This document shows positions 19,601 through 39,290 of a stretch of 64,000 bases of DNA, in pieces (within the stretch, counting starts at the first letter, position 1; each line of letters opens with the position of its first letter). Source of the DNA: Macrostomum lignano (taxonomy: Eukaryota). The stretch covers positions 186,001 through 250,000 of the forward strand of contig NIVC01001098.1 in assembly GCA_002269645.1 (NCBI GenBank), given 5' to 3'. Both the position numbers and the translations under genes were made by a program. The notes below the pieces were generated by a model. It worked only from the letters and a program-made list of their open reading frames with translations, was not told the DNA's origin and searched no databases.

Positions 19601-20875
19601 GAAAGTCAAGATAATGAAGAGAAATCGCTAATCGCTAATCCCAAGGTAGTAAAACGCTTTCTTTTTACCCCTTTTAGGGGTAAAACGCATAGCTGTCAAA
19701 GCTGTCACACGCTTGAGTGAACACGAACAATAGGCTCTGACCTCATAAATCTGATGGCCTGTCAAAAATGACGAGAAAAAAGCTGCTATTCGCATCCCCT
19801 CAGGCCATCTGGCACCAGCCTCAACACTGAGTGAGGCGCAGGTGGCTGTCAGACAAACTTTGAAAGCGATGATTTACGACCCAAAAAGCTGCGCCTATGA
19901 CTACTAGTATGACCAAACATTATATCTAGTATAGATTCTATGACAATTCGCAGAAAAAGAATAAAAATGCCCATAGCCTGCTGTCAGTAGGCTAGTAAGT
20001 TTAGAGCCCACGTGCTAGCGCGGGATTTGGAAAAAAGTGCGTCCTCATCACTTTCTACTCCAACTTTTATCGATAACTCAAATATATCGCTTTACACCAC
20101 TTCGTATTTAAATAATTGCATATATTATTTTCTTTGTCGTAAATTTCTTACTCAGCAAATGCATTAACTTCGCTGCATTATCGTTTTAACTAAAACAAAG
20201 TAAATGTCTGCGTTACTAGTCGATCGTTACAAACTACTTTGCAAGTCCAGGAACAGCAAGTGACTTAGGATCATCATCAAAGACAAATATTTACATTTTT
20301 TTCAAAGAATCTTTGGCTACTTGCTTTTATATACACGTAACATTGTGTACATGTGTAAAATTGCGTTACAATGCGGTTTTTGATTGTCATTCACATACGT
20401 AGATATTAACCATTTCATTTAGAGTATATCAGTTGGTTGAGTTTCCTTTTTACTAAGAAGGCATTGTGGAAACTAAGGAAGTATTAAAAATAGGAAAATC
20501 TAAGATGGGCTTCGTTGATCTGCTTAAAAGCAATCATGCCTTCATTGAGCTGATAAAATTCCTTGATAGCATTCTAAATATACTAAATCTCTTATATTTT
20601 ACTAAATTTTCTAATAAATAGTTATCAGCCTTTGCTCAAATCGTTTTAGTATAATCACTCAGGGAAACCATTAGTATTCACGCTAAATGAGTCAATATGA
20701 CCTACCAATTAAGGGGCACATGTCATACTGTTATACAGTAATTATGAATTAGTGCAGAATTTGTTTGCACCTTTCTTGCAGTAAATTATATTCATACATA
20801 CCATGCAATAGCTTGAATTGTACATTGCTTTTAAAGCAAAAATGAGTTCCTAACTCCTGACTCCATACTCTGTAG

Positions 20876-21879
20876 TGTGCCAGTTCTCTCTCCTCTACCT
20901 CTCACTCTGCTACCCTCTGTGTTAGGCCTTAGGGTTCCTACTGAAATTATCTCACCAATTTGCTGCTGTCCTTTAGTTCTAATTTCTTTATTCTATAAAT
21001 TGTCACTAATATATCTACTTTGAGTAGCGTTGGCAGCCCTAAATTATTACTTTTTCCTAGAAACTTCTAATTTCACACGATTTCCTAGAAACCTTGTGAT
21101 AGCGTGTAGTGCCCGAGCGGTAAGACACTGTCTAATCCTTAATTCAGTCCAAAAGTATAGCGTCTTCCGGGGACCAAGGGTGTCCAGCGGTAGCTAATCC
21201 ACTTCCCTAATACCTAATCTCTTAATGTGTAATGCTTATTATTAGCCTGTATGGCTTTCTTTGGATCTATACGATCTCGATCTCCCTGTCCAAATTTCTG
21301 TTATTGGGTCTCCACGACCTCTGGTTTCCCTATCTAGAGTCCTGGTTTTGGGTCTCCACGACCTCCATGGTTTCCCTATCTAGAATCCTGGTTTTGGGTC
21401 TCCACGACCTCTGGTTTCCCTATCTAGAATCCTGGTTTTGGGTCTCCACGACCTCTGGTTTCCCTATCTAGAATCCTGGTTTTGGGTCTCCACGACCTCT
21501 GGTTTCCCTATCTAGAATCCTGGTTTTGGGTCTCCACGACCTCTGGTTTCCCTATCTAGTGAAAGAAATAACGAGATAAGTCTTAGCCAAATTTAGATTT
21601 GTTTCGCTAAAAGATTCTCGCAAGTGGCTGAAGGCAAAAATTGAGAACGATCGCCGAGGAAGAAGTTATATTTTTTTAGTGTCAACCTAATTCCTTATAT
21701 ACAGAAAATTTGGGGAAGGTGGGACGCATTTTAACAATCACTAAAATTATAACAAAAGAATTCGATTTGTTTGGGGAATTTAAACAAATGGGGAAGAAAA
21801 TTTCTGATTGGCTATGATTAAAACTCGGGTTTAACTACTGTTATAAGTAATATACATAGTTTATAAAGATTCTGCCTCA
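20876..21879 (-). repeat. 3' LTR (1004 bp; six 44-bp internal repeats, one with a 2-nt insertion)
   Basis: TGTGCCAG to CTGCCTCA; matches 29454-30455 and 38030-39163. Confidence 0.95.
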
Positions 21880-21884
21880 ACTGG

Positions 21885-21896
21885 CTTCCCTATTTT
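21885..21896 (-). promoter_or_regulatory. Polypurine tract, copy 1 (copy 2 at 30461-30472)
   Basis: Minus strand AAAATAGGGAAG 5 nt before the 3' LTR. Confidence 0.6.
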
Positions 21897-22523
21897 AAAT
21901 TTTTCGAATAATTGTTTGAGTGAGAAAAATTTAACATAATATTAACATAATATTAGAAGTAGAATATGGGCAAAAGAACATGTTAGGAATAAATACGGTG
22001 AACAATACAGACATTAATATGAAGTACACGCTAAGTAATTAATGTACATGAGCATGTGGACAAATAGGTAATGACCAGGGAAGCAATATAAATAGTGATT
22101 ATGAACCGGTGCGTAAAAATACATATTAGCACAAGCAATAGAGCAACATACATATGAGCAATGGATATTTGGCGTGAACAAATGAGTAAATGTATGATTT
22201 AGCATGAGTAAATGTACATGGCTTGGCATGATTAAGCACGAGCGAATGAATAAATGTACATATTAGGATGATTAAGCATGAGCGAATGAATAAATGTACA
22301 TGGTTTGGCATGATTAAGCACGAGCGAATGAATAAATATACATATTAATATGATTAAGTGTTACTAGGACTTAGCCAGAAAGCAAAATTGTCTTACTTAA
22401 TCAATTCATATTAAACTCTAGCGGAAGGCTGTCCTCAACTGGCCAACCGAGATCGGCGGCCATCCAACACACCTCGAACCTGAGTTGCAGCTGCTGGTAG
22501 GCCCAGCCTGCCTGATGGATGGT

Positions 22524-23489
22524 CTACAGCGCATACCAAACTGCTCGGCGCCAAGCGGCAATGCTTTCTTCATAGCTAAATTCTCGGCGTAGAGCTTTGA
22601 TCGTCTCCTTTGGTTCGCCGGCCTGTGGCATGAACCCTCGCCCATCCAGGCGGAGCAGGGCTACGCGGCACAAATAATTCTTCAATTGGCCGATCAGATA
22701 CTTGTAATAGTCATGGCGCTGCCTTGGGATAGATGACAGTACTGCCGAAAAATTGGCGCCCAATTGCATCTGAGATTGTTGACGGGCTGGTTGCGTCGTA
22801 CGCCGATATTCCGGCGTGGCGGGCAGTCCCTGCTGAAGGCTCTCAGTAGATACTTCCGTCTGCTGCCGCGGCATTCTTGCGGTTGTCGACATAGCTGTCT
22901 GTGGCATGGAAAGCCTGGTTGCCGTAGAAATTTGCTGCTGCTGTTGCGGCTCCTGTCTGGGGAGGATTGTTCGCTGTCGTTTGGCGATGATGTGCTGGGT
23001 AGCTGTAGCGCCTTCAGGCTGCCGCTTGATGATGGCCTGGCTGACCTCTACAGGCTTTTCTGCCTGCCTTTTGAGTAGAGCGGCCCGAGCCCCTGGCTCA
23101 TGCGGCACAAGCTGTTTAGCCGGTCTGATGACAATTGACTTCAATCTCTGAGTGGGTCTCGATGACGAGGCCGTTACTTCACTTGCCGCTTCCTGTTTGC
23201 TGTCTAGATGCTGGGCGTATACCGCCTCCTGCTGGCTGTTGTGGGCGTACACCGCCTCTGATTTGCTGCTGCTGACTTGGTGGGCGTATACCGCCTCACT
23301 CTGGTCACTGTTGTGCGCTCCTTGACTATCGCTGGCGTATACCGCCTTCTGCTGGTTGCCTAGCTGGCCATTTTCCGCTTCTTTCGGCCTATCTGTGTCC
23401 TGGGCATCTACTGCCTCCTCTTCCTGACACAAATCTACTGTAAAACTGGCTAATAGCTGATCGAATGCCTCAGCATCAAAGTCTTCCAT
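22524..23489 (-). CDS. Retrotransposon accessory ORF3, 321 aa, unknown function, not env-like (copy 1)
   Basis: ATG to stop between pol and the 3' LTR in sense orientation; no signal peptide or TM segment; four to five AVYA repeats. Confidence 0.8.
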   Translation of the reverse strand: MEDFDAEAFDQLLASFTVDLCQEEEAVDAQDTDRPKEAENGQLGNQQKAVYASDSQGAHNSDQSEAVYAHQVSSSKSEAVYAHNSQQEAVYAQHLDSKQEAASEVTASSSRPTQRLKSIVIRPAKQLVPHEPGARAALLKRQAEKPVEVSQAIIKRQPEGATATQHIIAKRQRTILPRQEPQQQQQISTATRLSMPQTAMSTTARMPRQQTEVSTESLQQGLPATPEYRRTTQPARQQSQMQLGANFSAVLSSIPRQRHDYYKYLIGQLKNYLCRVALLRLDGRGFMPQAGEPKETIKALRREFSYEESIAAWRRAVWYAL

Positions 23490-23575
23490 TGTAATGCTTT
23501 GGTTTTTAAGTTTTGGCTAACTCTGGATTCTAGTTCTGGTTTTTATCCTAGTCTTTCTCCTGGCTCTGTGTGCCC

Positions 23576-23708
23576 TTTTTATATAAATTGTGTCCCCCCC
23601 TCATTGAGTTTATTTCAACAAATTTAACTTGTTTTAATCTATGTAAATTATCTTATTGGCTCTTGCGCAATAAACACTTGATTTAAACCGTAACTGACTT
23701 CCTATTGG
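23576..23708 (-). promoter_or_regulatory. Candidate internal promoter for ORF3 (copy 2 at 32152-32284)
   Basis: Minus strand TATATAAAAAGGG at 23585-23573, ~90 bp upstream of the ATG; AGCCAAT boxes at 23655-23661 and 23704-23710. Confidence 0.55.
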
Positions 23709-23712
23709 CTAG

Positions 23713-26700
23713 CTAAAAGTTTAGTTTCTCTAATAGTTTCCATACAGTAGCAAGCTTTTTTAGATAACACTGGCATTTGACTGGCGGCCTAGTACGGCTG
23801 CGTGTGTTATATGGTTTAGTTTTATTACCCTCTTTGTCTGACGTACCCCCATTCTCAGTGTGGCCCGCGTGCGCGCCTTTTCCTTCCCCCTGTTCTGTTT
23901 CGCGTCTGTTATCGATCGTTACTTCTCCTCCCTCTCGCTCTGACCTCTCCATCTCCTCTTCCACTAGGCTCTCATGTTGCATATTATTTTCTATCTCAGC
24001 TCTTGACTCCACTTCCAACTCTGGTTCATTCTCATGTACCGATTGTTCATTTTCACGAATCTTGCAAAACCACTTCGGCTGTTCCTCATCAGAGCTTTCT
24101 TCTTCTAATTCGATAACTGGTTCCTCTAGTCTATTCTTTCTGGCGTGGCTTCCCTTGCTTGATTGTCCTACCTCCTGCTGATTTCTTTTATTTAAATGCT
24201 TAGCTTTCGTCTGGCTCTCCTTATTAATAATTTCTACTGTCTCAGCACTCTCCTGGCTTCCCTTATCTATTGGCTCTTTCACAGAGTTTGGCACTGGGGC
24301 CATGTTATCCCTATGTACTAATAACTTGTTGCCTACTAACTCGCCTTCTTCTTCTTTCTGAATCTTAAAAACTACTTCTGAGATTTGCTTAAGCACTCGA
24401 AAGGCGGCTCGCTTTTTCCTATGAAACTTATTAGATTCGTCAATGTTAAGTTGTGGATTATTAATTAGTACTAAACTTCCTACTTCGATAGCCTTTGGCT
24501 TTTTCTGATTCTCGGCGTCTGTCTGCCTTTTGTCATGCACTTTCTCAAACTTTTCCTTAACTATTTTTCTAGCACTCTCTAATCTCTCGGCATGTTCGGC
24601 TACATAGGTCGGATAATTAGCGTATTGGTTTGGCTCTCTAAGTTCGCTGTCTATGGGCAAAACTGCCTCTCTGCCAAACAATAAGAAATGCGGCGAATAG
24701 CCTGTAGTCTGATTAACGCTAGTTCTAACTGCGACTAAGGCTGCTGGAATTAATAGATCCCAATTGCTATGATCTTTCTCAATCAGGCATGTGACTATTG
24801 ATTTGACCTGCTTGTTAAATCTTTCAACTAAACCATTGCTCTGTGCGTGATATGGAGTTGTGAAAGTATGCTTCACATTGTACAACTCACAGAATGCACT
24901 AAATTGTTTGCTAGTGAATGCCTTGCCATTATCTGTGTGAATCCATTGGCATTGGCCATATTCACTAAATACTCTTTCTTGCAATAGTTTAATAATTGTG
25001 TCAGCTTTTTGATTGCGCATTGGAAATGCAAACGGATAGCGAGTATTGCTGTCTACTATTGTCAACACATACTGATGGCCTCTTTTGCTAATTTTTGAAA
25101 TTGGCCCTATCACATCTATGTGTAATCGGTGAAATGGCTCACTAATTGGAAATGACTGAATCGGAGCTTGCACTTTATGGCCTCTTTTGCTCTCTAAGCA
25201 TGGGATGCATTCTGCCACATGCTTTTCTACTGCGGCTACTAAGCCTGGTCTCCAAAATCTCTCTCTAACTCGCTGAACTGTTTTGTCTCTACCTAAATGT
25301 CCTGCTAGCGGGCTATCATGCAGATCGCTAAACACTAGCTTATCTAAAGATTTAGGCAAAACTATTTTCCAGATTCTTTCTTCTTCTATAGTCAACAGAT
25401 TTCTCTCTAACTTCATTTTCTCATATTTTCGTCTTAACTGCTTCAGTTCGACTGACTCATTTTTCTGAATTGGCGGGACTGACAGATTTTCTTGCTTCCA
25501 CTCTATTAGTGTGCAGATTGCTGTGTCTTCCCTCTGAGCTTTAACAATTTGCTCCTTCTTCAATGGTACTTGCAAGTAGTCAGTTAGTAGTTTTGTAACT
25601 TTAGGTATCTCACTCTCTCTGTGATCAGGTTCAGTGTCTCTGTTCTGTTGCGTTAAGCTTGAACTCGGTGCTGACACATCTTCTACCTTCGCACCTTCTA
25701 CTCCTGAAATGACTAATGACTTGATCCTAGACTCTGAGTCCTCGGGATGCGAAGTCTGCATCTCTCTTTCTCCTTCTTCTACTGTCTCGCCTACTGCAGC
25801 ATTCACGCTGTCTATCGGCTTCACGCCCTTTTCACTTTCACAGGCTTTCACGCCTTGCTCAATTTCGGTTGCCTCAGCTACTTCTGCCGGTCTTCTGGAC
25901 AAACTATCCGCGTTGGAATGTTTGGCACCGCTTCTATGCTCAATATCGAATTGAAATTCATTTAGGCGTTCCACCCATCGTCCTAGAATCCCTTGGGCCT
26001 CTGTTTGCCTTAACAACCATAAAATCGCCTTATGATCTGTGCGCGCTAAAAATCGCTTTCCTATCAGATAAAATCTAAAATGCTTCATTGCATCTACTAA
26101 CGCTAGCAACTCTTTTCTAGTTATTGGATAGCGCTTCTCTGTTTCTTTCATAGCCCGACTGAAATATGCTATAGGCCTCTCGATGCCATCTGACTGGATT
26201 TGGCCTAGGCAGGCCCCTATGCGTCCATCACTAGCATCAGTGTCTAAGACCATTCTAACATTCTCATCGTCTACAAACTCCGGATAGGCTAACACTTCTG
26301 TTGACATCATTCTTTTCTTAAGCTCTTCAAATGCTTCATCATGAGCTCTAGTCCACTTTGCCTGAAAGTTCTGCACTCCTTTCCTAGTTAGTTGAAATAA
26401 CGGATGTGCAGCCTCAGCATAATTCTTAACAAAGCGACTATAATAATTGCATAATCCTAAGAAACTTCTTAGCTCTTTTACATCCTTTGGCTTTGGCCAG
26501 CTCCTAATGGCTTCTATTTTAGCTTCATCAGTCCTAATTCCTTCTCTTCCAATTACATGGCCTAAATATTTTAGTTCGCTATGAAATAGGTTGCACCTTT
26601 TAGCTCTTAGTTTCAGTCCTGCACTAATTAGTCTTTTAAATACCTCCTTAAGGTGTTCTAAATGATCTTCGAACTGCTTAGAATAGGTCACTATATCATC

Positions 26701-28458
26701 TATGTATGACATGGCATATTTATGCTGAATGCCTGCTAACACTAGATTCATAAGCCTTTGAAAAGTACCTGGGGCATTAGATAAGCCCTGAGCCATAACT
26801 TGATACTCAAACTGACCTCTTGTTAATGTTGAAAATGCAGTCATAAACTTGTGTTCCTCTTTTATCGGAACTTGCCAATAACCAGAATTCAGGTCAAGGC
26901 TACTAAAATACTGACTGCCTGTTAAGTTTGAAAATGTCTCCTGAATATTTGGTAGCGGATACGGAAAATAGTTCACTCGTGAATTCAGCACTCTAAAATC
27001 ACTGACTATTCGAATAGTACCATCTTTCTTTGGTACGATCACTAGAGGTGTTGAATAAGTCGAATAGCATGGCCTAATTAAGTTCTTAGCTAACATGTCA
27101 TCTAGCTGAGCATCTACCTGTTTCTGCAGATGAGGGGGAATCCTTCTAGTCGGAATCCTAACAGGTGTCTCATCCCTTAGTGAGATCTCATGCGTGACTA
27201 ATGATGTTAAGCCCATATCTAGATCATGTTGAGAGAAGGCCTCTCTATGCTCTTTTACGAGCTGAATCACCCTATCTCTCTGTTCTGCTGTCAAATCTTC
27301 ACTAATATCTATTTCGCTAATCCAAGTTTCACTTGTAGATTGCGTTTGATTGACACGTCCGGTGATTGGCTGATCTGACGGCACGGTTTGATCTACTTCC
27401 TTATTCATGTAAGTGAGCTCTCTAGCCCTGATTGGCTTAGCTAAACCTACTAAGGTTGATTTTGGTAATTTCACTTCCACCGTGCTTTGATTCACTACTT
27501 CTACTATGGCTACGCCATCGCGCATAGTAACTAAGGTCGGATTCATTTCTACTGTCTCTGTCTTAGTCCTAATACTACTTCCAATAGTCTCAATAGTCAT
27601 TGGCGTGCCATAATTGGCTTCTGAATTTTTGGCTAATCTCACTGGGATTCGCAGTGCGCTATTAGGCGGAACTACTGCCCTCTCCTGAGTATATACTCGG
27701 CAAACTTTTACTGGCAAATGAGTATACTGCATGGGAATACAAGTCCCCTCTTTTAAAATTAACATGCCTTTTGCTAATTGAATGCTTTCACAGCGATTTT
27801 TAAAGAATTCCATGCCTAGTATGTTGTCACAATCGTGGCTGCAGAGTAGGAATTCTATTTCTAATTCTAAATCTCCGAACTGCACTAAAGTACTCGCTTC
27901 TCCTTCTAATTTCACTGTAGTTCCATCAAATGTGGAAACTCTCCTACTTGTTTCTCTAATCTGACTCGGCTCGAATACTTTTGACCAAACTGATCTACTT
28001 AGAAAATTATTTTGAGCGCCTGTGTCTATTAGAAAGTCTACTTCTTGATTATCGATACTGCCTACTACTATTGCTTCATAGCCTGTCTGGTTTACTAATT
28101 CAACTTTTGGTTTCGGAAAAACCTTTTGCTTAACTATTTTCTTAGGCTTTGGCTGGCGAAAATCGGATTCGGACTCTTTTTCTACTACTGGTGCTAAATT
28201 TTCAGTAGCATAAGCAGGATTGACACATGATGATGCGGCTGGTGCATACGCATGAGGTGCTGACGCAGAATAAGTGGAAATTGGTGCTGGTGCAAACGCA
28301 TTATTTACATGCACACCACCTATGTGTCTTTTTCGCATTGGGACAGTTCGCCAACCTTCACTATCTACACTATATTTACAATTAGAGGCCTTCATTTTGT
28401 ACTCATTTCTCCTAGAGGGTCGTGGCCTCTCATGCCACCCTCTGTACTCTAGTTTCCC
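23713..28458 (-). CDS. pol: Pol polyprotein (protease, RT, RNase H, integrase), entered by -1 frameshift; copy 1
   Basis: FLIDTGA protease; YIDDI RT; LDTDASD and TDH RNase H; HDSPLAGHLG...CIPC zinc finger; IDVIGP, TDNGKAF, NGLVERFN integrase core; no chromodomain. Confidence 0.97.
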   Translation of the reverse strand, partial: GKLEYRGWHERPRPSRRNEYKMKASNCKYSVDSEGWRTVPMRKRHIGGVHVNNAFAPAPISTYSASAPHAYAPAASSCVNPAYATENLAPVVEKESESDFRQPKPKKIVKQKVFPKPKVELVNQTGYEAIVVGSIDNQEVDFLIDTGAQNNFLSRSVWSKVFEPSQIRETSRRVSTFDGTTVKLEGEASTLVQFGDLELEIEFLLCSHDCDNILGMEFFKNRCESIQLAKGMLILKEGTCIPMQYTHLPVKVCRVYTQERAVVPPNSALRIPVRLAKNSEANYGTPMTIETIGSSIRTKTETVEMNPTLVTMRDGVAIVEVVNQSTVEVKLPKSTLVGLAKPIRARELTYMNKEVDQTVPSDQPITGRVNQTQSTSETWISEIDISEDLTAEQRDRVIQLVKEHREAFSQHDLDMGLTSLVTHEISLRDETPVRIPTRRIPPHLQKQVDAQLDDMLAKNLIRPCYSTYSTPLVIVPKKDGTIRIVSDFRVLNSRVNYFPYPLPNIQETFSNLTGSQYFSSLDLNSGYWQVPIKEEHKFMTAFSTLTRGQFEYQVMAQGLSNAPGTFQRLMNLVLAGIQHKYAMSYIDDIVTYSKQFEDHLEHLKEVFKRLISAGLKLRAKRCNLFHSELKYLGHVIGREGIRTDEAKIEAIRSWPKPKDVKELRSFLGLCNYYSRFVKNYAEAAHPLFQLTRKGVQNFQAKWTRAHDEAFEELKKRMMSTEVLAYPEFVDDENVRMVLDTDASDGRIGACLGQIQSDGIERPIAYFSRAMKETEKRYPITRKELLALVDAMKHFRFYLIGKRFLARTDHKAILWLLRQTEAQGILGRWVERLNEFQFDIEHRSGAKHSNADSLSRRPAEVAEATEIEQGVKACESEKGVKPIDSVNAAVGETVEEGEREMQTSHPEDSESRIKSLVISGVEGAKVEDVSAPSSSLTQQNRDTEPDHRESEIPKVTKLLTDYLQVPLKKEQIVKAQREDTAICTLIEWKQENLSVPPIQKNESVELKQLRRKYEKMKLERNLLTIEEERIWKIVLPKSLDKLVFSDLHDSPLAGHLGRDKTVQRVRERFWRPGLVAAVEKHVAECIPCLESKRGHKVQAPIQSFPISEPFHRLHIDVIGPISKISKRGHQYVLTIVDSNTRYPFAFPMRNQKADTIIKLLQERVFSEYGQCQWIHTDNGKAFTSKQFSAFCELYNVKHTFTTPYHAQSNGLVERFNKQVKSIVTCLIEKDHSNWDLLIPAALVAVRTSVNQTTGYSPHFLLFGREAVLPIDSELREPNQYANYPTYVAEHAERLESARKIVKEKFEKVHDKRQTDAENQKKPKAIEVGSLVLINNPQLNIDESNKFHRKKRAAFRVLKQISEVVFKIQKEEEGELVGNKLLVHRDNMAPVPNSVKEPIDKGSQESAETVEIINKESQTKAKHLNKRNQQEVGQSSKGSHARKNRLEEPVIELEEESSDEEQPKWFCKIRENEQSVHENEPELEVESRAEIENNMQHESLVEEEMERSEREGGEVTIDNRRETEQGEGKGAHAGHTENGGTSDKEGNKTKPYNTRSRTRPPVKCQCYLKKLATVWKLLEKLNF
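28414..28458 (-). promoter_or_regulatory. Programmed -1 ribosomal frameshift signal (copy 2 at 36990-37034)
   Basis: G GGA AAC heptamer directly before the gag TAG; pol is in the -1 frame; hairpin AGAGG-GTGGC-ATGAGAG-GCCAC-GAC-CCTCT begins 8 nt downstream. Confidence 0.8.
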
Positions 28459-29393
28459 TGTTTGCGATTCACGCGGCACTGGTGACCTATACCAGGCCTT
28501 ATTGAGCCGGGTTGCTGGCAAATTGCACACCTTCCTGGCTGCGGCGAATAGGAGCGAATCGGAAACTCTCTCCTAGGTCTAGGCTGATAATATGCCGAAA
28601 CTCTCGGCTGAAATGCCGGTTGCTGCTGATAATTCTGTCGCGGCATCTGAGCTGGGCATGGCTGCGGTCTAGCCATAGGTGGTGGCTTGTGCGCCATCAG
28701 CTCCTGAATCAGCTTTTTCTGTTGCTCTAACTCATTCTTCTGCTGCTGAACTAAATCTTGGAGCTTCTTCTCTTGCTCTCCTTCTCCCTCTTTCATCATC
28801 CTAACACCTCCTTTGTGCGATAGTTGCCATGCGGCTTCAATTCGCCTTAGCATTCGCCTAGCTTCCTGCAAATTCGCTGGCTGAGCAAAGATTAACTTCT
28901 CCCTAGTATCTGGCGGAATCCTAACTCCTTTGATAAACTGCTCAACTATCTCTTCCTCTCGCTGCTCTGCATTCATGTTCGGGAAGGCTCTATCTGATAG
29001 CTCGATCAGCGCATCAGCATAAGCGTCTTTCGACTCATTCCTTCCTTGCATTCTGCCTCTAAACTCTTCCCTAAATTCTGACGCATTTCCTATTCTACCG
29101 AATCTCTCGATCAAGTGCTCCTTGAATTCTTCATATCCTAGATCTTCTGGCAGATTAAGTCGCTGTACAGCGGCGAACGCTGTTGCTAGGTCTAGATTAG
29201 CTAATAGCTCAGTTTTCCTATGATTCTCCTCGATTCCTTCTGATTCACACCTCTGATCAAAAGCTGTCAACCAGATCCTAATGTCTTGGCTTGGCGTGTA
29301 CTTCTGAATTCTCACATGCCTCGCTGGTCCTATTTCTAAACGATTCCTAAGTTCTTCAGCTAGTAGCGCTAATGCGTCATTAATTCCTGCCAT
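28449..29393 (-). CDS. gag: Gag, 314 aa, copy 1
   Basis: Retrotransposon-gag-like helical region (WLTAFDQRC, EEFKEHLIERFG, QGRNESKDAYADAL) located after the PBS. Confidence 0.93.
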   Translation of the reverse strand: MAGINDALALLAEELRNRLEIGPARHVRIQKYTPSQDIRIWLTAFDQRCESEGIEENHRKTELLANLDLATAFAAVQRLNLPEDLGYEEFKEHLIERFGRIGNASEFREEFRGRMQGRNESKDAYADALIELSDRAFPNMNAEQREEEIVEQFIKGVRIPPDTREKLIFAQPANLQEARRMLRRIEAAWQLSHKGGVRMMKEGEGEQEKKLQDLVQQQKNELEQQKKLIQELMAHKPPPMARPQPCPAQMPRQNYQQQPAFQPRVSAYYQPRPRREFPIRSYSPQPGRCAICQQPGSIRPGIGHQCRVNRKQGN

Positions 29394-29439
29394 TTTTCAC
29401 TTATCTAGTTAGCTTTCCGCTAGTTTCTTGATCCCTTTA

Positions 29440-29450
29440 CGCTGCCACCA
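29440..29450 (-). promoter_or_regulatory. Primer binding site, tRNA-Leu type (copy 2 at 38016-38026)
   Basis: TGGTGGCAGCG 3 nt after the LTR end; complementary to the recalled eukaryotic tRNA-Leu 3' end CGCUGCCACCA. Confidence 0.8.
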
Positions 29451-29453
29451 AGT

Positions 29454-30455
29454 TGTGCCAGTTCTCTCTCCTCTACCTCTCACTCTGCTACCCTCTGTGT
29501 TAGGCCTTAGGGTTCCTACTGAAATTATCTCACCAATTTGCTGCTGTCCTTTAGTTCTAATTTCTTTATTCTATAAATTGTCACTAATATATCTACTTTG
29601 AGTAGCGTTGGCAGCCCTAAATTATTACTTTTTCCTAGAAACTTCTAATTTCACACGATTTCCTAGAAACCTTGTGATAGCGTGTAGTGCCCGAGCGGTA
29701 AGACACTGTCTAATCCTTAATTCAGTCCAAAAGTATAGCGTCTTCCGGGGACCAAGGGTGTCCAGCGGTAGCTAATCCACTTCCCTAATACCTAATCTCT
29801 TAATGTGTAATGCTTATTATTAGCCTGTATGGCTTTCTTTGGATCTATACGATCTCGATCTCCCTGTCCAAATTTCTGTTATTGGGTCTCCACGACCTCT
29901 GGTTTCCCTATCTAGAGTCCTGGTTTTGGGTCTCCACGACCTCTGGTTTCCCTATCTAGAATCCTGGTTTTGGGTCTCCACGACCTCTGGTTTCCCTATC
30001 TAGAATCCTGGTTTTGGGTCTCCACGACCTCTGGTTTCCCTATCTAGAATCCTGGTTTTGGGTCTCCACGACCTCTGGTTTCCCTATCTAGAATCCTGGT
30101 TTTGGGTCTCCACGACCTCTGGTTTCCCTATCTAGTGAAAGAAATAACGAGATAAGTCTTAGCCAAATTTAGATTTGTTTCGCTAAAAGATTCTCGCAAG
30201 TGGCTGAAGGCAAAAATTGAGAACGATCGCCGAGGAAGAAGTTATATTTTTTTAGTGTCAACCTAATTCCTTATATACAGAAAATTTGGGGAAGGTGGGA
30301 CGCATTTTAACAATCACTAAAATTATAACAAAAGAATTCGATTTGTTTGGGGAATTTAAACAAATGGGGAAGAAAATTTCTGATTGGCTATGATTAAAAC
30401 TCGGGTTTAACTACTGTTATAAGTAATATACATAGTTTATAAAGATTCTGCCTCA
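29454..30455 (-). repeat. Shared middle LTR (1002 bp, six 44-bp repeats)
   Basis: PBS on one side and PPT on the other. Confidence 0.95.
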
Positions 30456-31099
30456 ACTGGCTTCCCTATTTTAAATTTTTCGAATAATTGTTTGAGTGAG
30501 AAAAATTTAACATAATATTAACATAATATTAGAAGTAGAATATGGGCAAAAGAACATGTTAGGAATAAATACGGTGAACAATACAGACATTAATATGAAG
30601 TACACGCTAAGTAATTAATGTACATGAGCATGTGGACAAATAGGTAATGACCAGGGAAGCAATATAAATAGTGATTATGAACCGGTGCGTAAAAATACAT
30701 ATTAGCACAAGCAATAGAGCAACATACATATGAGCAATGGATATTTGGCGTGAACAAATGAGTAAATGTATGATTTAGCATGAGTAAATGTACATGGCTT
30801 GGCATGATTAAGCACGAGCGAATGAATAAATGTACATATTAGGATGATTAAGCATGAGCGAATGAATAAATGTACATGGTTTGGCATGATTAAGCACGAG
30901 CGAATGAATAAATATACATATTAATATGATTAAGTGTTACTAGGACTTAGCCAGAAAGCAAAATTGTCTTACTTAATCAATTCATATTAAACTCTAGCGG
31001 AAGGCTGTCCTCAACTGGCCAACCGAGATCGGCGGCCATCCAACACACCTCGAACCTGAGTTGCAGCTGCTGGTAGGCCCAGCCTGCCTGATGGATGGT

Positions 31100-32065
31100 C
31101 TACAGCGCATACCAAACTGCTCGGCGCCAAGCGGCAATGCTTTCTTCATAGCTAAATTCTCGGCGTAGAGCTTTGATCGTCTCCTTTGGTTCGCCGGCCT
31201 GTGGCATGAACCCTCGCCCATCCAGGCGGAGCAGGGCTACGCGGCACAAATAATTCTTCAATTGGCCGATCAGATACTTGTAATAGTCATGGCGCTGCCT
31301 TGGGATAGATGACAGTACTGCCGAAAAATTGGCGCCCAATTGCATCTGAGATTGTTGACGGGCTGGTTGCGTCGTACGCCGATATTCCGGCGTGGCGGGC
31401 AGTCCCTGCTGAAGGCTCTCAGTAGATACTTCCGTCTGCTGCCGCGGCATTCTTGCGGTTGTCGACATAGCTGTCTGTGGCATGGAAAGCCTGGTTGCCG
31501 TAGAAATTTGCTGCTGCTGTTGCGGCTCCTGTCTGGGGAGGATTGTTCGCTGTCGTTTGGCGATGATGTGCTGGGTAGCTGTAGCGCCTTCAGGCTGCCG
31601 CTTGATGATGGCCTGGCTGACCTCTACAGGCTTTTCTGCCTGCCTTTTGAGTAGAGCGGCCCGAGCCCCTGGCTCATGCGGCACAAGCTGTTTAGCCGGT
31701 CTGATGACAATTGACTTCAATCTCTGAGTGGGTCTCGATGACGAGGCCGTTACTTCACTTGCCGCTTCCTGTTTGCTGTCTAGATGCTGGGCGTATACCG
31801 CCTCCTGCTGGCTGTTGTGGGCGTACACCGCCTCTGATTTGCTGCTGCTGACTTGGTGGGCGTATACCGCCTCACTCTGGTCACTGTTGTGCGCTCCTTG
31901 ACTATCGCTGGCGTATACCGCCTTCTGCTGGTTGCCTAGCTGGCCATTTTCCGCTTCTTTCGGCCTATCTGTGTCCTGGGCATCTACTGCCTCCTCTTCC
32001 TGACACAAATCTACTGTAAAACTGGCTAATAGCTGATCGAATGCCTCAGCATCAAAGTCTTCCAT
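31100..32065 (-). CDS. Accessory ORF3, copy 2
   Basis: Translation identical to 22524-23489. Confidence 0.8.
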   Translation of the reverse strand: MEDFDAEAFDQLLASFTVDLCQEEEAVDAQDTDRPKEAENGQLGNQQKAVYASDSQGAHNSDQSEAVYAHQVSSSKSEAVYAHNSQQEAVYAQHLDSKQEAASEVTASSSRPTQRLKSIVIRPAKQLVPHEPGARAALLKRQAEKPVEVSQAIIKRQPEGATATQHIIAKRQRTILPRQEPQQQQQISTATRLSMPQTAMSTTARMPRQQTEVSTESLQQGLPATPEYRRTTQPARQQSQMQLGANFSAVLSSIPRQRHDYYKYLIGQLKNYLCRVALLRLDGRGFMPQAGEPKETIKALRREFSYEESIAAWRRAVWYAL

Positions 32066-32288
32066 TGTAATGCTTTGGTTTTTAAGTTTTGGCTAACTCT
32101 GGATTCTAGTTCTGGTTTTTATCCTAGTCTTTCTCCTGGCTCTGTGTGCCCTTTTTATATAAATTGTGTCCCCCCCTCATTGAGTTTATTTCAACAAATT
32201 TAACTTGTTTTAATCTATGTAAATTATCTTATTGGCTCTTGCGCAATAAACACTTGATTTAAACCGTAACTGACTTCCTATTGGCTAG

Positions 32289-35200
32289 CTAAAAGTTTAG
32301 TTTCTCTAATAGTTTCCATACAGTAGCAAGCTTTTTTAGATAACACTGGCATTTGACTGGCGGCCTAGTACGGCTGCGTGTGTTATATGGTTTAGTTTTA
32401 TTACCCTCTTTGTCTGACGTACCCCCATTCTCAGTGTGGCCCGCGTGCGCGCCTTTTCCTTCCCCCTGTTCTGTTTCGCGTCTGTTATCGATCGTTACTT
32501 CTCCTCCCTCTCGCTCTGACCTCTCCATCTCCTCTTCCACTAGGCTCTCATGTTGCATATTATTTTCTATCTCAGCTCTTGACTCCACTTCCAACTCTGG
32601 TTCATTCTCATGTACCGATTGTTCATTTTCACGAATCTTGCAAAACCACTTCGGCTGTTCCTCATCAGAGCTTTCTTCTTCTAATTCGATAACTGGTTCC
32701 TCTAGTCTATTCTTTCTGGCGTGGCTTCCCTTGCTTGATTGTCCTACCTCCTGCTGATTTCTTTTATTTAAATGCTTAGCTTTCGTCTGGCTCTCCTTAT
32801 TAATAATTTCTACTGTCTCAGCACTCTCCTGGCTTCCCTTATCTATTGGCTCTTTCACAGAGTTTGGCACTGGGGCCATGTTATCCCTATGTACTAATAA
32901 CTTGTTGCCTACTAACTCGCCTTCTTCTTCTTTCTGAATCTTAAAAACTACTTCTGAGATTTGCTTAAGCACTCGAAAGGCGGCTCGCTTTTTCCTATGA
33001 AACTTATTAGATTCGTCAATGTTAAGTTGTGGATTATTAATTAGTACTAAACTTCCTACTTCGATAGCCTTTGGCTTTTTCTGATTCTCGGCGTCTGTCT
33101 GCCTTTTGTCATGCACTTTCTCAAACTTTTCCTTAACTATTTTTCTAGCACTCTCTAATCTCTCGGCATGTTCGGCTACATAGGTCGGATAATTAGCGTA
33201 TTGGTTTGGCTCTCTAAGTTCGCTGTCTATGGGCAAAACTGCCTCTCTGCCAAACAATAAGAAATGCGGCGAATAGCCTGTAGTCTGATTAACGCTAGTT
33301 CTAACTGCGACTAAGGCTGCTGGAATTAATAGATCCCAATTGCTATGATCTTTCTCAATCAGGCATGTGACTATTGATTTGACCTGCTTGTTAAATCTTT
33401 CAACTAAACCATTGCTCTGTGCGTGATATGGAGTTGTGAAAGTATGCTTCACATTGTACAACTCACAGAATGCACTAAATTGTTTGCTAGTGAATGCCTT
33501 GCCATTATCTGTGTGAATCCATTGGCATTGGCCATATTCACTAAATACTCTTTCTTGCAATAGTTTAATAATTGTGTCAGCTTTTTGATTGCGCATTGGA
33601 AATGCAAACGGATAGCGAGTATTGCTGTCTACTATTGTCAACACATACTGATGGCCTCTTTTGCTAATTTTTGAAATTGGCCCTATCACATCTATGTGTA
33701 ATCGGTGAAATGGCTCACTAATTGGAAATGACTGAATCGGAGCTTGCACTTTATGGCCTCTTTTGCTCTCTAAGCATGGGATGCATTCTGCCACATGCTT
33801 TTCTACTGCGGCTACTAAGCCTGGTCTCCAAAATCTCTCTCTAACTCGCTGAACTGTTTTGTCTCTACCTAAATGTCCTGCTAGCGGGCTATCATGCAGA
33901 TCGCTAAACACTAGCTTATCTAAAGATTTAGGCAAAACTATTTTCCAGATTCTTTCTTCTTCTATAGTCAACAGATTTCTCTCTAACTTCATTTTCTCAT
34001 ATTTTCGTCTTAACTGCTTCAGTTCGACTGACTCATTTTTCTGAATTGGCGGGACTGACAGATTTTCTTGCTTCCACTCTATTAGTGTGCAGATTGCTGT
34101 GTCTTCCCTCTGAGCTTTAACAATTTGCTCCTTCTTCAATGGTACTTGCAAGTAGTCAGTTAGTAGTTTTGTAACTTTAGGTATCTCACTCTCTCTGTGA
34201 TCAGGTTCAGTGTCTCTGTTCTGTTGCGTTAAGCTTGAACTCGGTGCTGACACATCTTCTACCTTCGCACCTTCTACTCCTGAAATGACTAATGACTTGA
34301 TCCTAGACTCTGAGTCCTCGGGATGCGAAGTCTGCATCTCTCTTTCTCCTTCTTCTACTGTCTCGCCTACTGCAGCATTCACGCTGTCTATCGGCTTCAC
34401 GCCCTTTTCACTTTCACAGGCTTTCACGCCTTGCTCAATTTCGGTTGCCTCAGCTACTTCTGCCGGTCTTCTGGACAAACTATCCGCGTTGGAATGTTTG
34501 GCACCGCTTCTATGCTCAATATCGAATTGAAATTCATTTAGGCGTTCCACCCATCGTCCTAGAATCCCTTGGGCCTCTGTTTGCCTTAACAACCATAAAA
34601 TCGCCTTATGATCTGTGCGCGCTAAAAATCGCTTTCCTATCAGATAAAATCTAAAATGCTTCATTGCATCTACTAACGCTAGCAACTCTTTTCTAGTTAT
34701 TGGATAGCGCTTCTCTGTTTCTTTCATAGCCCGACTGAAATATGCTATAGGCCTCTCGATGCCATCTGACTGGATTTGGCCTAGGCAGGCCCCTATGCGT
34801 CCATCACTAGCATCAGTGTCTAAGACCATTCTAACATTCTCATCGTCTACAAACTCCGGATAGGCTAACACTTCTGTTGACATCATTCTTTTCTTAAGCT
34901 CTTCAAATGCTTCATCATGAGCTCTAGTCCACTTTGCCTGAAAGTTCTGCACTCCTTTCCTAGTTAGTTGAAATAACGGATGTGCAGCCTCAGCATAATT
35001 CTTAACAAAGCGACTATAATAATTGCATAATCCTAAGAAACTTCTTAGCTCTTTTACATCCTTTGGCTTTGGCCAGCTCCTAATGGCTTCTATTTTAGCT
35101 TCATCAGTCCTAATTCCTTCTCTTCCAATTACATGGCCTAAATATTTTAGTTCGCTATGAAATAGGTTGCACCTTTTAGCTCTTAGTTTCAGTCCTGCAC

Positions 35201-37034
35201 TAATTAGTCTTTTAAATACCTCCTTAAGGTGTTCTAAATGATCTTCGAACTGCTTAGAATAGGTCACTATATCATCTATGTATGACATGGCATATTTATG
35301 CTGAATGCCTGCTAACACTAGATTCATAAGCCTTTGAAAAGTACCTGGGGCATTAGATAAGCCCTGAGCCATAACTTGATACTCAAACTGACCTCTTGTT
35401 AATGTTGAAAATGCAGTCATAAACTTGTGTTCCTCTTTTATCGGAACTTGCCAATAACCAGAATTCAGGTCAAGGCTACTAAAATACTGACTGCCTGTTA
35501 AGTTTGAAAATGTCTCCTGAATATTTGGTAGCGGATACGGAAAATAGTTCACTCGTGAATTCAGCACTCTAAAATCACTGACTATTCGAATAGTACCATC
35601 TTTCTTTGGTACGATCACTAGAGGTGTTGAATAAGTCGAATAGCATGGCCTAATTAAGTTCTTAGCTAACATGTCATCTAGCTGAGCATCTACCTGTTTC
35701 TGCAGATGAGGGGGAATCCTTCTAGTCGGAATCCTAACAGGTGTCTCATCCCTTAGTGAGATCTCATGCGTGACTAATGATGTTAAGCCCATATCTAGAT
35801 CATGTTGAGAGAAGGCCTCTCTATGCTCTTTTACGAGCTGAATCACCCTATCTCTCTGTTCTGCTGTCAAATCTTCACTAATATCTATTTCGCTAATCCA
35901 AGTTTCACTTGTAGATTGCGTTTGATTGACACGTCCGGTGATTGGCTGATCTGACGGCACGGTTTGATCTACTTCCTTATTCATGTAAGTGAGCTCTCTA
36001 GCCCTGATTGGCTTAGCTAAACCTACTAAGGTTGATTTTGGTAATTTCACTTCCACCGTGCTTTGATTCACTACTTCTACTATGGCTACGCCATCGCGCA
36101 TAGTAACTAAGGTCGGATTCATTTCTACTGTCTCTGTCTTAGTCCTAATACTACTTCCAATAGTCTCAATAGTCATTGGCGTGCCATAATTGGCTTCTGA
36201 ATTTTTGGCTAATCTCACTGGGATTCGCAGTGCGCTATTAGGCGGAACTACTGCCCTCTCCTGAGTATATACTCGGCAAACTTTTACTGGCAAATGAGTA
36301 TACTGCATGGGAATACAAGTCCCCTCTTTTAAAATTAACATGCCTTTTGCTAATTGAATGCTTTCACAGCGATTTTTAAAGAATTCCATGCCTAGTATGT
36401 TGTCACAATCGTGGCTGCAGAGTAGGAATTCTATTTCTAATTCTAAATCTCCGAACTGCACTAAAGTACTCGCTTCTCCTTCTAATTTCACTGTAGTTCC
36501 ATCAAATGTGGAAACTCTCCTACTTGTTTCTCTAATCTGACTCGGCTCGAATACTTTTGACCAAACTGATCTACTTAGAAAATTATTTTGAGCGCCTGTG
36601 TCTATTAGAAAGTCTACTTCTTGATTATCGATACTGCCTACTACTATTGCTTCATAGCCTGTCTGGTTTACTAATTCAACTTTTGGTTTCGGAAAAACCT
36701 TTTGCTTAACTATTTTCTTAGGCTTTGGCTGGCGAAAATCGGATTCGGACTCTTTTTCTACTACTGGTGCTAAATTTTCAGTAGCATAAGCAGGATTGAC
36801 ACATGATGATGCGGCTGGTGCATACGCATGAGGTGCTGACGCAGAATAAGTGGAAATTGGTGCTGGTGCAAACGCATTATTTACATGCACACCACCTATG
36901 TGTCTTTTTCGCATTGGGACAGTTCGCCAACCTTCACTATCTACACTATATTTACAATTAGAGGCCTTCATTTTGTACTCATTTCTCCTAGAGGGTCGTG
37001 GCCTCTCATGCCACCCTCTGTACTCTAGTTTCCC
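32289..37034 (-). CDS. pol: Pol polyprotein, copy 2
   Basis: Translation identical to copy 1. Confidence 0.97.
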   Translation of the reverse strand, partial: GKLEYRGWHERPRPSRRNEYKMKASNCKYSVDSEGWRTVPMRKRHIGGVHVNNAFAPAPISTYSASAPHAYAPAASSCVNPAYATENLAPVVEKESESDFRQPKPKKIVKQKVFPKPKVELVNQTGYEAIVVGSIDNQEVDFLIDTGAQNNFLSRSVWSKVFEPSQIRETSRRVSTFDGTTVKLEGEASTLVQFGDLELEIEFLLCSHDCDNILGMEFFKNRCESIQLAKGMLILKEGTCIPMQYTHLPVKVCRVYTQERAVVPPNSALRIPVRLAKNSEANYGTPMTIETIGSSIRTKTETVEMNPTLVTMRDGVAIVEVVNQSTVEVKLPKSTLVGLAKPIRARELTYMNKEVDQTVPSDQPITGRVNQTQSTSETWISEIDISEDLTAEQRDRVIQLVKEHREAFSQHDLDMGLTSLVTHEISLRDETPVRIPTRRIPPHLQKQVDAQLDDMLAKNLIRPCYSTYSTPLVIVPKKDGTIRIVSDFRVLNSRVNYFPYPLPNIQETFSNLTGSQYFSSLDLNSGYWQVPIKEEHKFMTAFSTLTRGQFEYQVMAQGLSNAPGTFQRLMNLVLAGIQHKYAMSYIDDIVTYSKQFEDHLEHLKEVFKRLISAGLKLRAKRCNLFHSELKYLGHVIGREGIRTDEAKIEAIRSWPKPKDVKELRSFLGLCNYYSRFVKNYAEAAHPLFQLTRKGVQNFQAKWTRAHDEAFEELKKRMMSTEVLAYPEFVDDENVRMVLDTDASDGRIGACLGQIQSDGIERPIAYFSRAMKETEKRYPITRKELLALVDAMKHFRFYLIGKRFLARTDHKAILWLLRQTEAQGILGRWVERLNEFQFDIEHRSGAKHSNADSLSRRPAEVAEATEIEQGVKACESEKGVKPIDSVNAAVGETVEEGEREMQTSHPEDSESRIKSLVISGVEGAKVEDVSAPSSSLTQQNRDTEPDHRESEIPKVTKLLTDYLQVPLKKEQIVKAQREDTAICTLIEWKQENLSVPPIQKNESVELKQLRRKYEKMKLERNLLTIEEERIWKIVLPKSLDKLVFSDLHDSPLAGHLGRDKTVQRVRERFWRPGLVAAVEKHVAECIPCLESKRGHKVQAPIQSFPISEPFHRLHIDVIGPISKISKRGHQYVLTIVDSNTRYPFAFPMRNQKADTIIKLLQERVFSEYGQCQWIHTDNGKAFTSKQFSAFCELYNVKHTFTTPYHAQSNGLVERFNKQVKSIVTCLIEKDHSNWDLLIPAALVAVRTSVNQTTGYSPHFLLFGREAVLPIDSELREPNQYANYPTYVAEHAERLESARKIVKEKFEKVHDKRQTDAENQKKPKAIEVGSLVLINNPQLNIDESNKFHRKKRAAFRVLKQISEVVFKIQKEEEGELVGNKLLVHRDNMAPVPNSVKEPIDKGSQESAETVEIINKESQTKAKHLNKRNQQEVGQSSKGSHARKNRLEEPVIELEEESSDEEQPKWFCKIRENEQSVHENEPELEVESRAEIENNMQHESLVEEEMERSEREGGEVTIDNRRETEQGEGKGAHAGHTENGGTSDKEGNKTKPYNTRSRTRPPVKCQCYLKKLATVWKLLEKLNF

Positions 37035-37969: not shown

Positions 37970-38029
37970 TTTTCACTTATCTAGTTAGCTTTCCGCTAGT
38001 TTCTTGATCCCTTTACGCTGCCACCAAGT

Positions 38030-39163
38030 TGTGCCAGTTCTCTCTCCTCTACCTCTCACTCTGCTACCCTCTGTGTTAGGCCTTAGGGTTCCTACTGAAA
38101 TTATCTCACCAATTTGCTGCTGTCCTTTAGTTCTAATTTCTTTATTCTATAAATTGTCACTAATATATCTACTTTGAGTAGCGTTGGCAGCCCTAAATTA
38201 TTACTTTTTCCTAGAAACTTCTAATTTCACACGATTTCCTAGAAACCTTGTGATAGCGTGTAGTGCCCGAGCGGTAAGACACTGTCTAATCCTTAATTCA
38301 GTCCAAAAGTATAGCGTCTTCCGGGGACCAAGGGTGTCCAGCGGTAGCTAATCCACTTCCCTAATACCTAATCTCTTAATGTGTAATGCTTATTATTAGC
38401 CTGTATGGCTTTCTTTGGATCTATACGATCTCGATCTCCCTGTCCAAATTTCTGTTATTGGGTCTCCACGACCTCTGGTTTCCCTATCTAGAGTCCTGGT
38501 TTTGGGTCTCCACGACCTCTGGTTTCCCTATCTAGAATCCTGGTTTTGGGTCTCCACGACCTCTGGTTTCCCTATCTAGAATCCTGGTTTTGGGTCTCCA
38601 CGACCTCTGGTTTCCCTATCTAGAATCCTGGTTTTGGGTCTCCACGACCTCTGGTTTCCCTATCTAGAATCCTGGTTTTGGGTCTCCACGACCTCTGGTT
38701 TCCCTATCTAGAATCCTGGTTTTGGGTCTCCACGACCTCTGGTTTCCCTATCTAGAATCCTGGTTTTGGGTCTCCACGACCTCTGGTTTCCCTATCTAGA
38801 ATCCTGGTTTTGGGTCTCCACGACCTCTGGTTTCCCTATCTAGTGAAAGAAATAACGAGATAAGTCTTAGCCAAATTTAGATTTGTTTCGCTAAAAGATT
38901 CTCGCAAGTGGCTGAAGGCAAAAATTGAGAACGATCGCCGAGGAAGAAGTTATATTTTTTTAGTGTCAACCTAATTCCTTATATACAGAAAATTTGGGGA
39001 AGGTGGGACGCATTTTAACAATCACTAAAATTATAACAAAAGAATTCGATTTGTTTGGGGAATTTAAACAAATGGGGAAGAAAATTTCTGATTGGCTATG
39101 ATTAAAACTCGGGTTTAACTACTGTTATAAGTAATATACATAGTTTATAAAGATTCTGCCTCA
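38030..39163 (-). repeat. 5' LTR (1134 bp, nine 44-bp repeats)
   Basis: 132 bp (3 x 44) longer than the middle LTR. Confidence 0.95.
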
Positions 39164-39290
39164 GTAGCATGCAACTGTTAGAGAGTGCGAGTATTACTGC
39201 ATGCCTGTCCGGTCGCAGGTGCAGATCCAGAAAATTGTGAACGGGGGCTATTGATTTTTTGAACTACTATTGAACTACTACAGTATATCC

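Follow-up and report, generated by a model that had tools for sequence, protein, structure and literature searches.

A non-env third open reading frame with a putative promoter of its own behind pol, maintained across a Ty3/gypsy clade of the flatworm Macrostomum lignano

Self-encoded transcriptional regulators are a mark of complex retroviruses. The prevailing view of Ty3/gypsy elements is that they depend on factors of the host, and the extra open reading frames (ORFs) known in them are mostly env-like or of unknown function. Several described systems resemble the frame considered here, termed ORF3. In foamy viruses, the accessory Tas/Bet gene likewise follows the structural genes, ahead of the 3' LTR, and has a second promoter (PMC4929722, available portion); a modular activator layout is predicted for ORF3. 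The maize element Grande carries gene23, which, like ORF3, is an extra ORF of an unknown family in a Ty3/gypsy element, located between pol and the 3' LTR, with its own promoter and a proposed nuclear role (PMC7264820, available portion). In bdelloid rotifers, Juno and Vesta are animal LTR retrotransposons whose third ORF, again located where env would be, is not an env gene (PMC5408684, available portion).

ORF3 was found in a 64,000-nucleotide stretch of Macrostomum lignano DNA (contig NIVC01001098.1, positions 186,001 to 250,000), referred to below as the window. The minus strand of the window carries a young Ty3/gypsy element twice in tandem, in the order LTR-internal-LTR-internal-LTR with a period of 8576, and the sole difference between the units across 9260 bases is a 2-bp indel in one LTR. 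A single target-site duplication, GTAG, flanks the outer ends of the tandem (20872-20875 and 39164-39167), and the arrangement at 20876-39163 may represent either a very recent duplication of the element or an assembly duplication. The gag and pol frames are open, the pol domains follow the Ty3/gypsy order PR-RT-RH-IN according to Pfam matches, and the LTRs, primer binding site (PBS), polypurine tract (PPT) and target-site duplication expected of a member of this group are present:

20876..21879, minus strand: 3' LTR, with CCAAT near 21807-21811, TATA near 21696-21701 and 44-bp repeats
21883..21896, minus strand: polypurine tract
23713..28572, minus strand: pol frame, PR-RT-RH-IN by Pfam, with the pol stop at 23713-23715
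28449..29393, minus strand: gag, with weak Retrotrans_gag and Ty3_capsid matches below the cut-off
29440..29450, minus strand: primer binding site TGGTGGCAGCG, common to the whole clade
29454..30455, minus strand: middle LTR, common to both tandem units
38030..39163, minus strand: 5'-most LTR, with more 44-bp repeats

We take the primer binding site TGGTGGCAGCG to be that of tRNA-Leu. The 44-bp tandem repeats (21300-21559 and 38455-38843) lie 3' of the LTR TATA, in the predicted transcribed part, and vary in copy number between LTRs; extra PBS-like sequences occur in the 3' part of the LTRs, 5' of the true PBS, in L047, L048, L062, L064, L068-L071, L073 and L076. Elsewhere in the window, a 400-codon open frame without a Pfam match adjoins the insertion (39785-40987, minus strand) and is presumably glycosyltransferase-like, and two open frames at 47246-48925 on the plus strand are, we assume, like a divergent tubulin. 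Three motifs sought for RT clade placement in the available portion of the supplements of PMC12801592 gave no match.

ORF3 occupies the env position in sense orientation, as the original prediction had stated, with its ATG at 23489 behind pol and on the minus strand like the element. Its parts are as follows:

22524..23489, minus strand: ORF3, 321 codons, from the ATG at 23489 to a premature stop at 22524-22526 that sister copies run past
31100..32065, minus strand: second copy of ORF3, identical, with the same premature stop
22401..22523, minus strand: in-frame continuation past the premature stop, with the 40 codons that complete the C-terminal domain and then the usual stop of the family (alignment, read with X at the stop)
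23400..23489, minus strand: acidic amphipathic N-terminal segment, a candidate activation or docking motif, acidic in all aligned members having an N-terminus
22990..23120, minus strand: conserved middle motifs RLKSIV, RAALLKRQA..PV and RQP.GA, limits approximate (alignment)
22524..22770, minus strand: N-terminal two thirds of the five-helix C-terminal domain (alignment and model)

The frame had been described as an intact 321-aa ORF; the 321 codons are right, but the stop is premature, and the 40 codons that follow it in the same frame match the sister copies in the alignment. Since both the sisters and the window frame continue beyond this point, the window ORF3 is a truncated allele in both tandem units. 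The stop costs it the final third of a helical domain that, in the sister alignment, spans about 122 aa rather than the roughly 60 aa first proposed. An identical stop is present in a contig of one DNA run, possibly the window's own source, so it is not peculiar to the assembly. The closest sister of the window ORF3 is also broken, and loss of function is likely for the window copy, whose product, cut short, would be missing its last helix and the conserved tail and would probably not fold, in which case the copy would depend on its sisters in trans. Other parts of the original description hold with qualification: four AVYA repeats are present, but the alignment marks them as subfamily-specific filler rather than a family feature, and an acidic N-terminus is found in all 37 aligned members, with the window version being only generically acidic and hydrophobic.

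Two CCAAT boxes and one TATA box had been predicted upstream of ORF3 at the end of pol. All of them are present in the sequence, just behind the pol stop and hence outside pol:

23704..23708, minus strand: distal CCAAT box, 5 nt past the pol stop
23655..23659, minus strand: proximal CCAAT box
23578..23585, minus strand: TATA box, assigned to the putative internal promoter, at -96/-94 relative to the ATG
23490..23555, minus strand: predicted 5' leader (start site inferred), without ATG or splice acceptor, with A at -3 and G at +4

Across the family, 13 of 26 ORF3 types have TATAWA at -200..-60, where resampled sequence gives a mean of 4.6 (maximum 11 in 1000), and 7 of the 26 have it together with an upstream RRCCAAT, against 0.39 in resampled sequence; the types are related, so these counts are not independent trials. 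In the window's subgroup, a TATA box lies at -72 to -106 in all five types, with mostly unalignable spacers, and the signal is weakest in the subgroup L047-L071, where TATA-like sequences are found in 5 of 8 members, scattered from -91 to -224. The last 75 nt before the ORF3 start contain a single ATG where 24.5 would be expected, whereas ATG is not significantly depleted in five windows further upstream, and such confinement is what would be expected if the leader began some 25-30 nt behind the TATA box. The start-codon context and the ATG-free leader are conserved across the ORF3 family.

No YAG splice acceptor precedes ORF3 in the window, and those in some sisters are weak and unfixed. The related clades C and D instead have a fixed splice-acceptor-like signal (at -13/-17 in C and -7 in D) and no TATA box, and it is possible from this pattern that the main clade, relative to clade C, gave up splicing in favour of an internal promoter. 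Three runs presumed to be RNA have contigs with thin coverage of ORF3 and no splice joint before it; by their nature, contigs cannot show start, strand or level. In 20 promoter/LTR comparisons, no DNA element common to the internal promoter and its own LTR stood above other LTRs. A GAACAC..GATGCGGTCCAGTTT-type element is conserved in clade B promoters, where it precedes the TATA position by 20-30 nt and takes a variant form in three (carriers L074, L100, L101, L104, L106, L108, L109, L111-L116 and L097); it is absent from the LTRs checked. What holds statistically of the dedicated internal promoter originally proposed is a promoter-like sequence, in the form of TATA enrichment and an ATG-free leader, and an internal promoter ahead of ORF3 is well supported at the level of sequence.

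A search of the worm's own genome with the last 92 residues of the window domain, in which 150 of 183 candidates were scored, gave at least 142 matches with identities of 30-100%, and 60 of these were taken for comparison, picked for diversity and long open frames. Among the 150 matches listed for the integrase, 98 reach at least 65% identity, and the ORF3 domain lies 3' of 90 of these on the same strand; seven of the eight at first without it were examined, and five proved to have it, bringing the total to 95 of 98 among the matches listed. Sister families thus keep an ORF at this position, as the original prediction anticipated, rather than lacking or frameshifting it. The dN/dS ratio is below 1 in all 144 computable domain pairs with dS>0.1, with a median of 0.28, the pairs not being independent; silent sites are saturated in 287 of 435 pairs (30 domains). 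Four low-divergence pairs fall outside this count, and in two of them the ratio exceeds 1 on very few changes. These comparisons indicate that ORF3 is an old gene selected as a protein under purifying selection, and a real clade-wide accessory gene of one Ty3/gypsy clade.

Beyond the main family, a sister group designated clade C (L160, L161, L163, L164, L168, L170 and L171) has integrases 55-58% identical and an ORF3 of 236-278 aa. Its ORF3 domain matches the family domain with an hhalign E of 0.00054 at a probability of 30%, which makes it a probable remote homologue. The ORF3 of clade D (L165, L166 and L167) begins LEQQLSLSAS and carries RLG and RSRS motifs; comparison of its domain with the family domain gave no demonstrated homology.

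In clade B, identified in a second search round with loci picked for long open frames, 11 of the 17 elements examined are without pol, and 10 of these 11 keep a full ORF3. Young pol-less elements of about 5 kb (L101-L103, L105, L107, L108, L110, L111, L113-L115 and L075) have LTR pairs 93.9-100% identical and combine ORF3 with a shortened gag of 150-197 aa that contains a hydrophobic stretch (19-residue hydropathy 1.48-1.95, four measured). A stand-alone locus has also been recovered on three contigs (L097:4913-5266, L098:4921-5274 and L099:4939-5295) with flanks 95-98.5% identical. It encodes the C-terminal domain alone (118-119 aa), which lacks the final conserved tail; the clade-B promoter motif and a TATA box precede the frame, and no gag or pol lies within about 5 kb. 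The locus forms a long branch within clade B, its product is an NCBI hypothetical protein, and it is a candidate for host capture on the basis of this arrangement.

Backbones with RT nucleotide identities of 94-100% often have ORF3 domains only 38-66% identical, and their LTRs share few 11-mers; the shared backbone sequence mostly stops in the promoter region, and shared blocks mostly begin at or near the PBS. The window element and L038 are 98.5% identical over 5.7 kb as far as -136/-116 and then diverge, and the corresponding points are -50 for L104/L112, -83/-98 for L074/L116, -185/-254 for L062/L069, -419/-291 for L047/L064 and -527/-530 for L100/L116. Such breakpoints indicate that ORF3 and the LTR are exchanged together between backbones as a cassette. 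A single template switch within the sequence that two backbones last share is enough to account for this linkage, so that a functional pairing of ORF3 with its LTR is only possible. Swaps arising by copying of the short RNA were considered and set aside: they predict that U5 follows the backbone, which it does not, so that no more than ordinary template switching in this last shared stretch is needed. All 17 close LTR matches examined are without an element body beside them, and the 3' LTR of L031 was not found.

All 37 aligned members share one protein layout: the N-terminus is acidic, the middle is disordered and of low complexity but includes short conserved motifs, and the C-terminal domain is neutral to basic. 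The first 30 residues contain 5-13 acidic against 0-4 basic residues in every aligned member, the C-terminal 120 residues have a net charge of 0 to +9, and KR[PQRS] clusters occur in 29 of 37 members (shuffled 8.95). The C-terminal domain is modelled as five helices (pLDDT 84, pTM 0.79), and the full-length model of sister L064 adds short helices at 4-15 and 68-80 and no second folded domain. As originally stated, the window protein shows no signal peptide, furin site (RX[KR]R) or membrane anchor, and none of 38 proteins reaches a 19-residue hydropathy of 1.6 (maximum 1.11, hydropathy alone). An identity as env was rejected on these features.

Homology searches have been extensive. Pfam gave no match above the cut-off for ORF3 sets of 1, 30, 7 and 5 sequences; DnaJ in particular had no Pfam match in any of 30 members, and HPD is absent from the alignment. 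The best PDB match by sequence was to TINCR at E 0.0045, accompanied by weak ribosomal matches, none of which a wider alignment reproduced. Fold searches (Foldseek on PDB and viral models, and VIA-align) returned nothing at E<=0.001 and matched no DNA- or RNA-binding fold, chromatin reader or nuclease; the best fold match (Z 7.9, rmsd 4.2, 106 aligned) is usual for helical bundles and is no proof of a new fold. The ESM Atlas offered no usable feature match, with all structure rows below the bar, viral contigs held no ORF3 relative, and word-indexed protein searches with the window domain, and with the alignment against longer proteins, found no relatives. In an HMM search of 1.84 billion representative proteins there were seven matches, five of them named Macrostomum lignano (proteins of this label match the worm's genome at 100%) and one an unnamed cluster (P0002/P0008), with a profile built from the first-clade alignment only, so that remoter relatives may be missed; the match P0006 was discarded as repeat-driven. 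The profile and fold comparison of the C-terminal domain advised in the original prediction, made here against Pfam, PDB and viral structures, yielded no significant match, and Pfam, PDB, fold and profile searches uncovered neither an env fragment nor a captured host gene.

No description of this ORF was found in the open literature, a scope that excludes Repbase, subscription journals and bioRxiv supplements, and the word "ORF" is absent from the available portion of a survey of this flatworm's LTR families (PMC12801592). ORF3 is apparently an undescribed accessory protein family, and from the search results it seems confined to one genus.

The reading preferred here, tentatively and with somewhat less than even confidence, is that ORF3 is a non-env accessory gene that is likely transcribed from a separate TATA promoter behind pol and likely encodes a nuclear transactivator of the element. 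A short RNA would start about 25-30 nt behind the TATA box and end in the 3' LTR; the acidic N-terminal helix of its product would dock on Pol II co-factors, whether MED26, other TFIIS-N-terminal domains or a generic activator target, and the basic helical C-terminal domain would bring the protein to the DNA or RNA of the element. At the end of the N-terminal helix, [DE]LxLS[DEPA]S occurs in 10 of 37 members (shuffled mean 0.00), all within one subgroup. AF4 binds MED26 through its DLXLS motif (PMC6339877, available portion), and the TND-interacting motif (TIM) is defined as a helix with an acidic Ser-rich linker (PMC9987994, available portion); for ORF3, a helix is predicted at 4-15 in L064, and an acidic Ser/Thr-rich linker is present in the subgroup. 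The host genome encodes a MED26 N-terminal domain, and a model of this domain with the first 36 residues of sister L069 scored 0.35 against 0.03 for the best control, with runs agreeing in at least 81% of contacts and a partner pLDDT of at least 54. The mark used for such models admits 51 of 78 solved pairs and 2 of 108 mismatched ones; scores of 0.60 or below came from only 5 of the 78 solved complexes and from every one of the 4 passing mismatches, in a calibration without peptides. The model lends weak support to binding of the MED26 domain by the L069 N-terminus, weak because low scores also came from mismatches and because likeness to solved complexes may explain the score. Speaking against a transactivator are the lack of a match to any known DNA- or RNA-binding fold, the absence of an element common to the internal promoter and its own LTR that scores above other LTRs, the confinement of DLxLS to one subgroup and its absence from the window N-terminus, the fact that this subgroup has the weakest TATA signal, and the ALYREF-type motif in 9 of 37 members, which points to RNA export instead. 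Of the accessory regulator of an undescribed family originally proposed, the non-env, undescribed and selected character stands, and a regulatory activity is predicted.

ORF3 might instead be a post-transcriptional adaptor like ICP27/ORF57 or Rev, binding element RNA through its helical domain, recruiting ALYREF/TREX and SR-type machinery, and exporting or stabilising unspliced RNA, a role that seems unlikely on balance. The motif phi-x-x-RLG, an experimentally mapped ligand of the ALYREF RRM (bioRxiv 10.64898/2026.07.03.735260, available portion), is present in 9 of 37 members against 0.12 in shuffled sequence, distributed over three branches (the L048-L073 group, L050 and L116), and R[SP]RSP is present in 8 of 37 against 0.35; on these counts the export adaptor stays a candidate. 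In addition, the host has ALYREF, ICP27-family proteins bind ALYREF for intronless RNA (PMC6177440, available portion), and the more distant clade D ORF3 also carries RLG and RSRSR. However, 28 of 37 members lack the RLG motif, as does the window protein; the feature common to all is the acidic N-terminus, and ICP27 is unmatched by sequence or fold searches. Less probable still is a sequence-specific anti-silencing factor on the model of VANC, each type of which would shield its own LTR from piRNA or chromatin repression, so that ORF3 and LTR diversify together. Similar backbones with diverged domains and LTRs, and retained diversity of the kind expected under frequency-dependent selection, agree with this role, as does the retention of ORF3 by pol-less elements; nevertheless, a single template switch moves ORF3 and the LTR jointly, so the two can be inherited together without being functionally paired, searches matched no fold of a chromatin reader or nuclease, an acidic activator-like N-terminus is unnecessary for such a role, and selection on the domain is purifying rather than positive.

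Action elsewhere, in particle trafficking, nuclear import, integration targeting or on host genes, is the least probable of the functional alternatives. The KR[PQRS] clusters could act in import, a contribution to nuclear entry has been proposed for extra ORFs of plants (PMC7264820, available portion), and lentiviral integrase uses TND-binding for targeting (PMC9987994, available portion), but an own promoter and retention without pol are more in keeping with a diffusible regulator than with a component of the particle, and a membrane segment is lacking in 38 of 38 proteins. That ORF3 is a degenerate env remnant or a functionless passenger is very improbable: the broken state of both window copies and of the closest sister would agree with it, whereas strong purifying selection across silent-site saturation, the lack of any env feature, and the conserved start context and ATG-free leader argue against it. 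Transactivator, export adaptor and anti-silencing roles are not mutually exclusive. The full combination of a Tas-like transactivator with a fold without library match, an internal TATA promoter, MED26/elongation-factor mimicry, a cognate ORF3+LTR cassette and a host-captured copy of promoter and targeting domain that would serve as a dominant-negative restriction factor is considered unlikely as a whole. Separately, a host exon with a FoP/CHTOP-type tail (L158:1429-1668) carries VTNRLG, an instance of the phi-xxRLG motif.

Compared with foamy virus Tas, the elements described here have no env, and ORF3 shows no sequence or fold match to it in Pfam, PDB or viral structures and no shared LTR/promoter element that stood out. 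The foamy-virus analogy drawn in the original prediction thus stands for the layout, but not for a DNA element shared by the internal promoter and the LTR. ICP27/ORF57 proteins have an acidic disordered N-terminus and a helical C-terminal domain, and they differ from ORF3 in that no conserved Cys/His is found among the ORF3 invariant columns. An ALYREF-type motif like that of ICP27/ORF57 (PMC6177440, available portion) is present in a minority of ORF3 members, with no homology detected. In foamy BTas, the activation segment is C-terminal, at residues 198-249 (PMC4929722, available portion), whereas the candidate segment of ORF3 is N-terminal. Grande gene23 is antisense, from a plant, and encodes a nuclear protein (PMC7264820, available portion), whereas ORF3 is sense, from an animal, has a different domain and is swapped with the LTR. 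The third ORFs of Juno and Vesta encode a captured DEDDy exonuclease, a GDSL esterase or membrane proteins (PMC5408684, available portion), in contrast to ORF3, for which no enzyme, Pfam or membrane match was obtained. An amphipathic helix ending in [DE]LxLS with an acidic Ser-rich linker, as in AF4 DLXLS (PMC6339877, available portion) and TIMs (PMC9987994, available portion), is found in 10 of 37 members; this form is absent from the window copy and the other 27, and the likeness is one of motif alone.

An ORF3 family with dozens of natural alleles would test why retrotransposons keep accessory genes and how regulator-LTR pairs diversify, and its domain of about 122 aa represents a new structural target. 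Worm transgenesis and LTR reporters are in use (PMC12801592, available portion), so functional tests are feasible in the worm. An extra 3' ORF in Ty3/gypsy elements is a known kind of gene; what is new here is the set of near-identical backbones with deeply diverged ORF3+LTR cassettes that mostly part at the promoter, the retention of ORF3 by pol-less elements, and the stand-alone locus combining the promoter with the domain.
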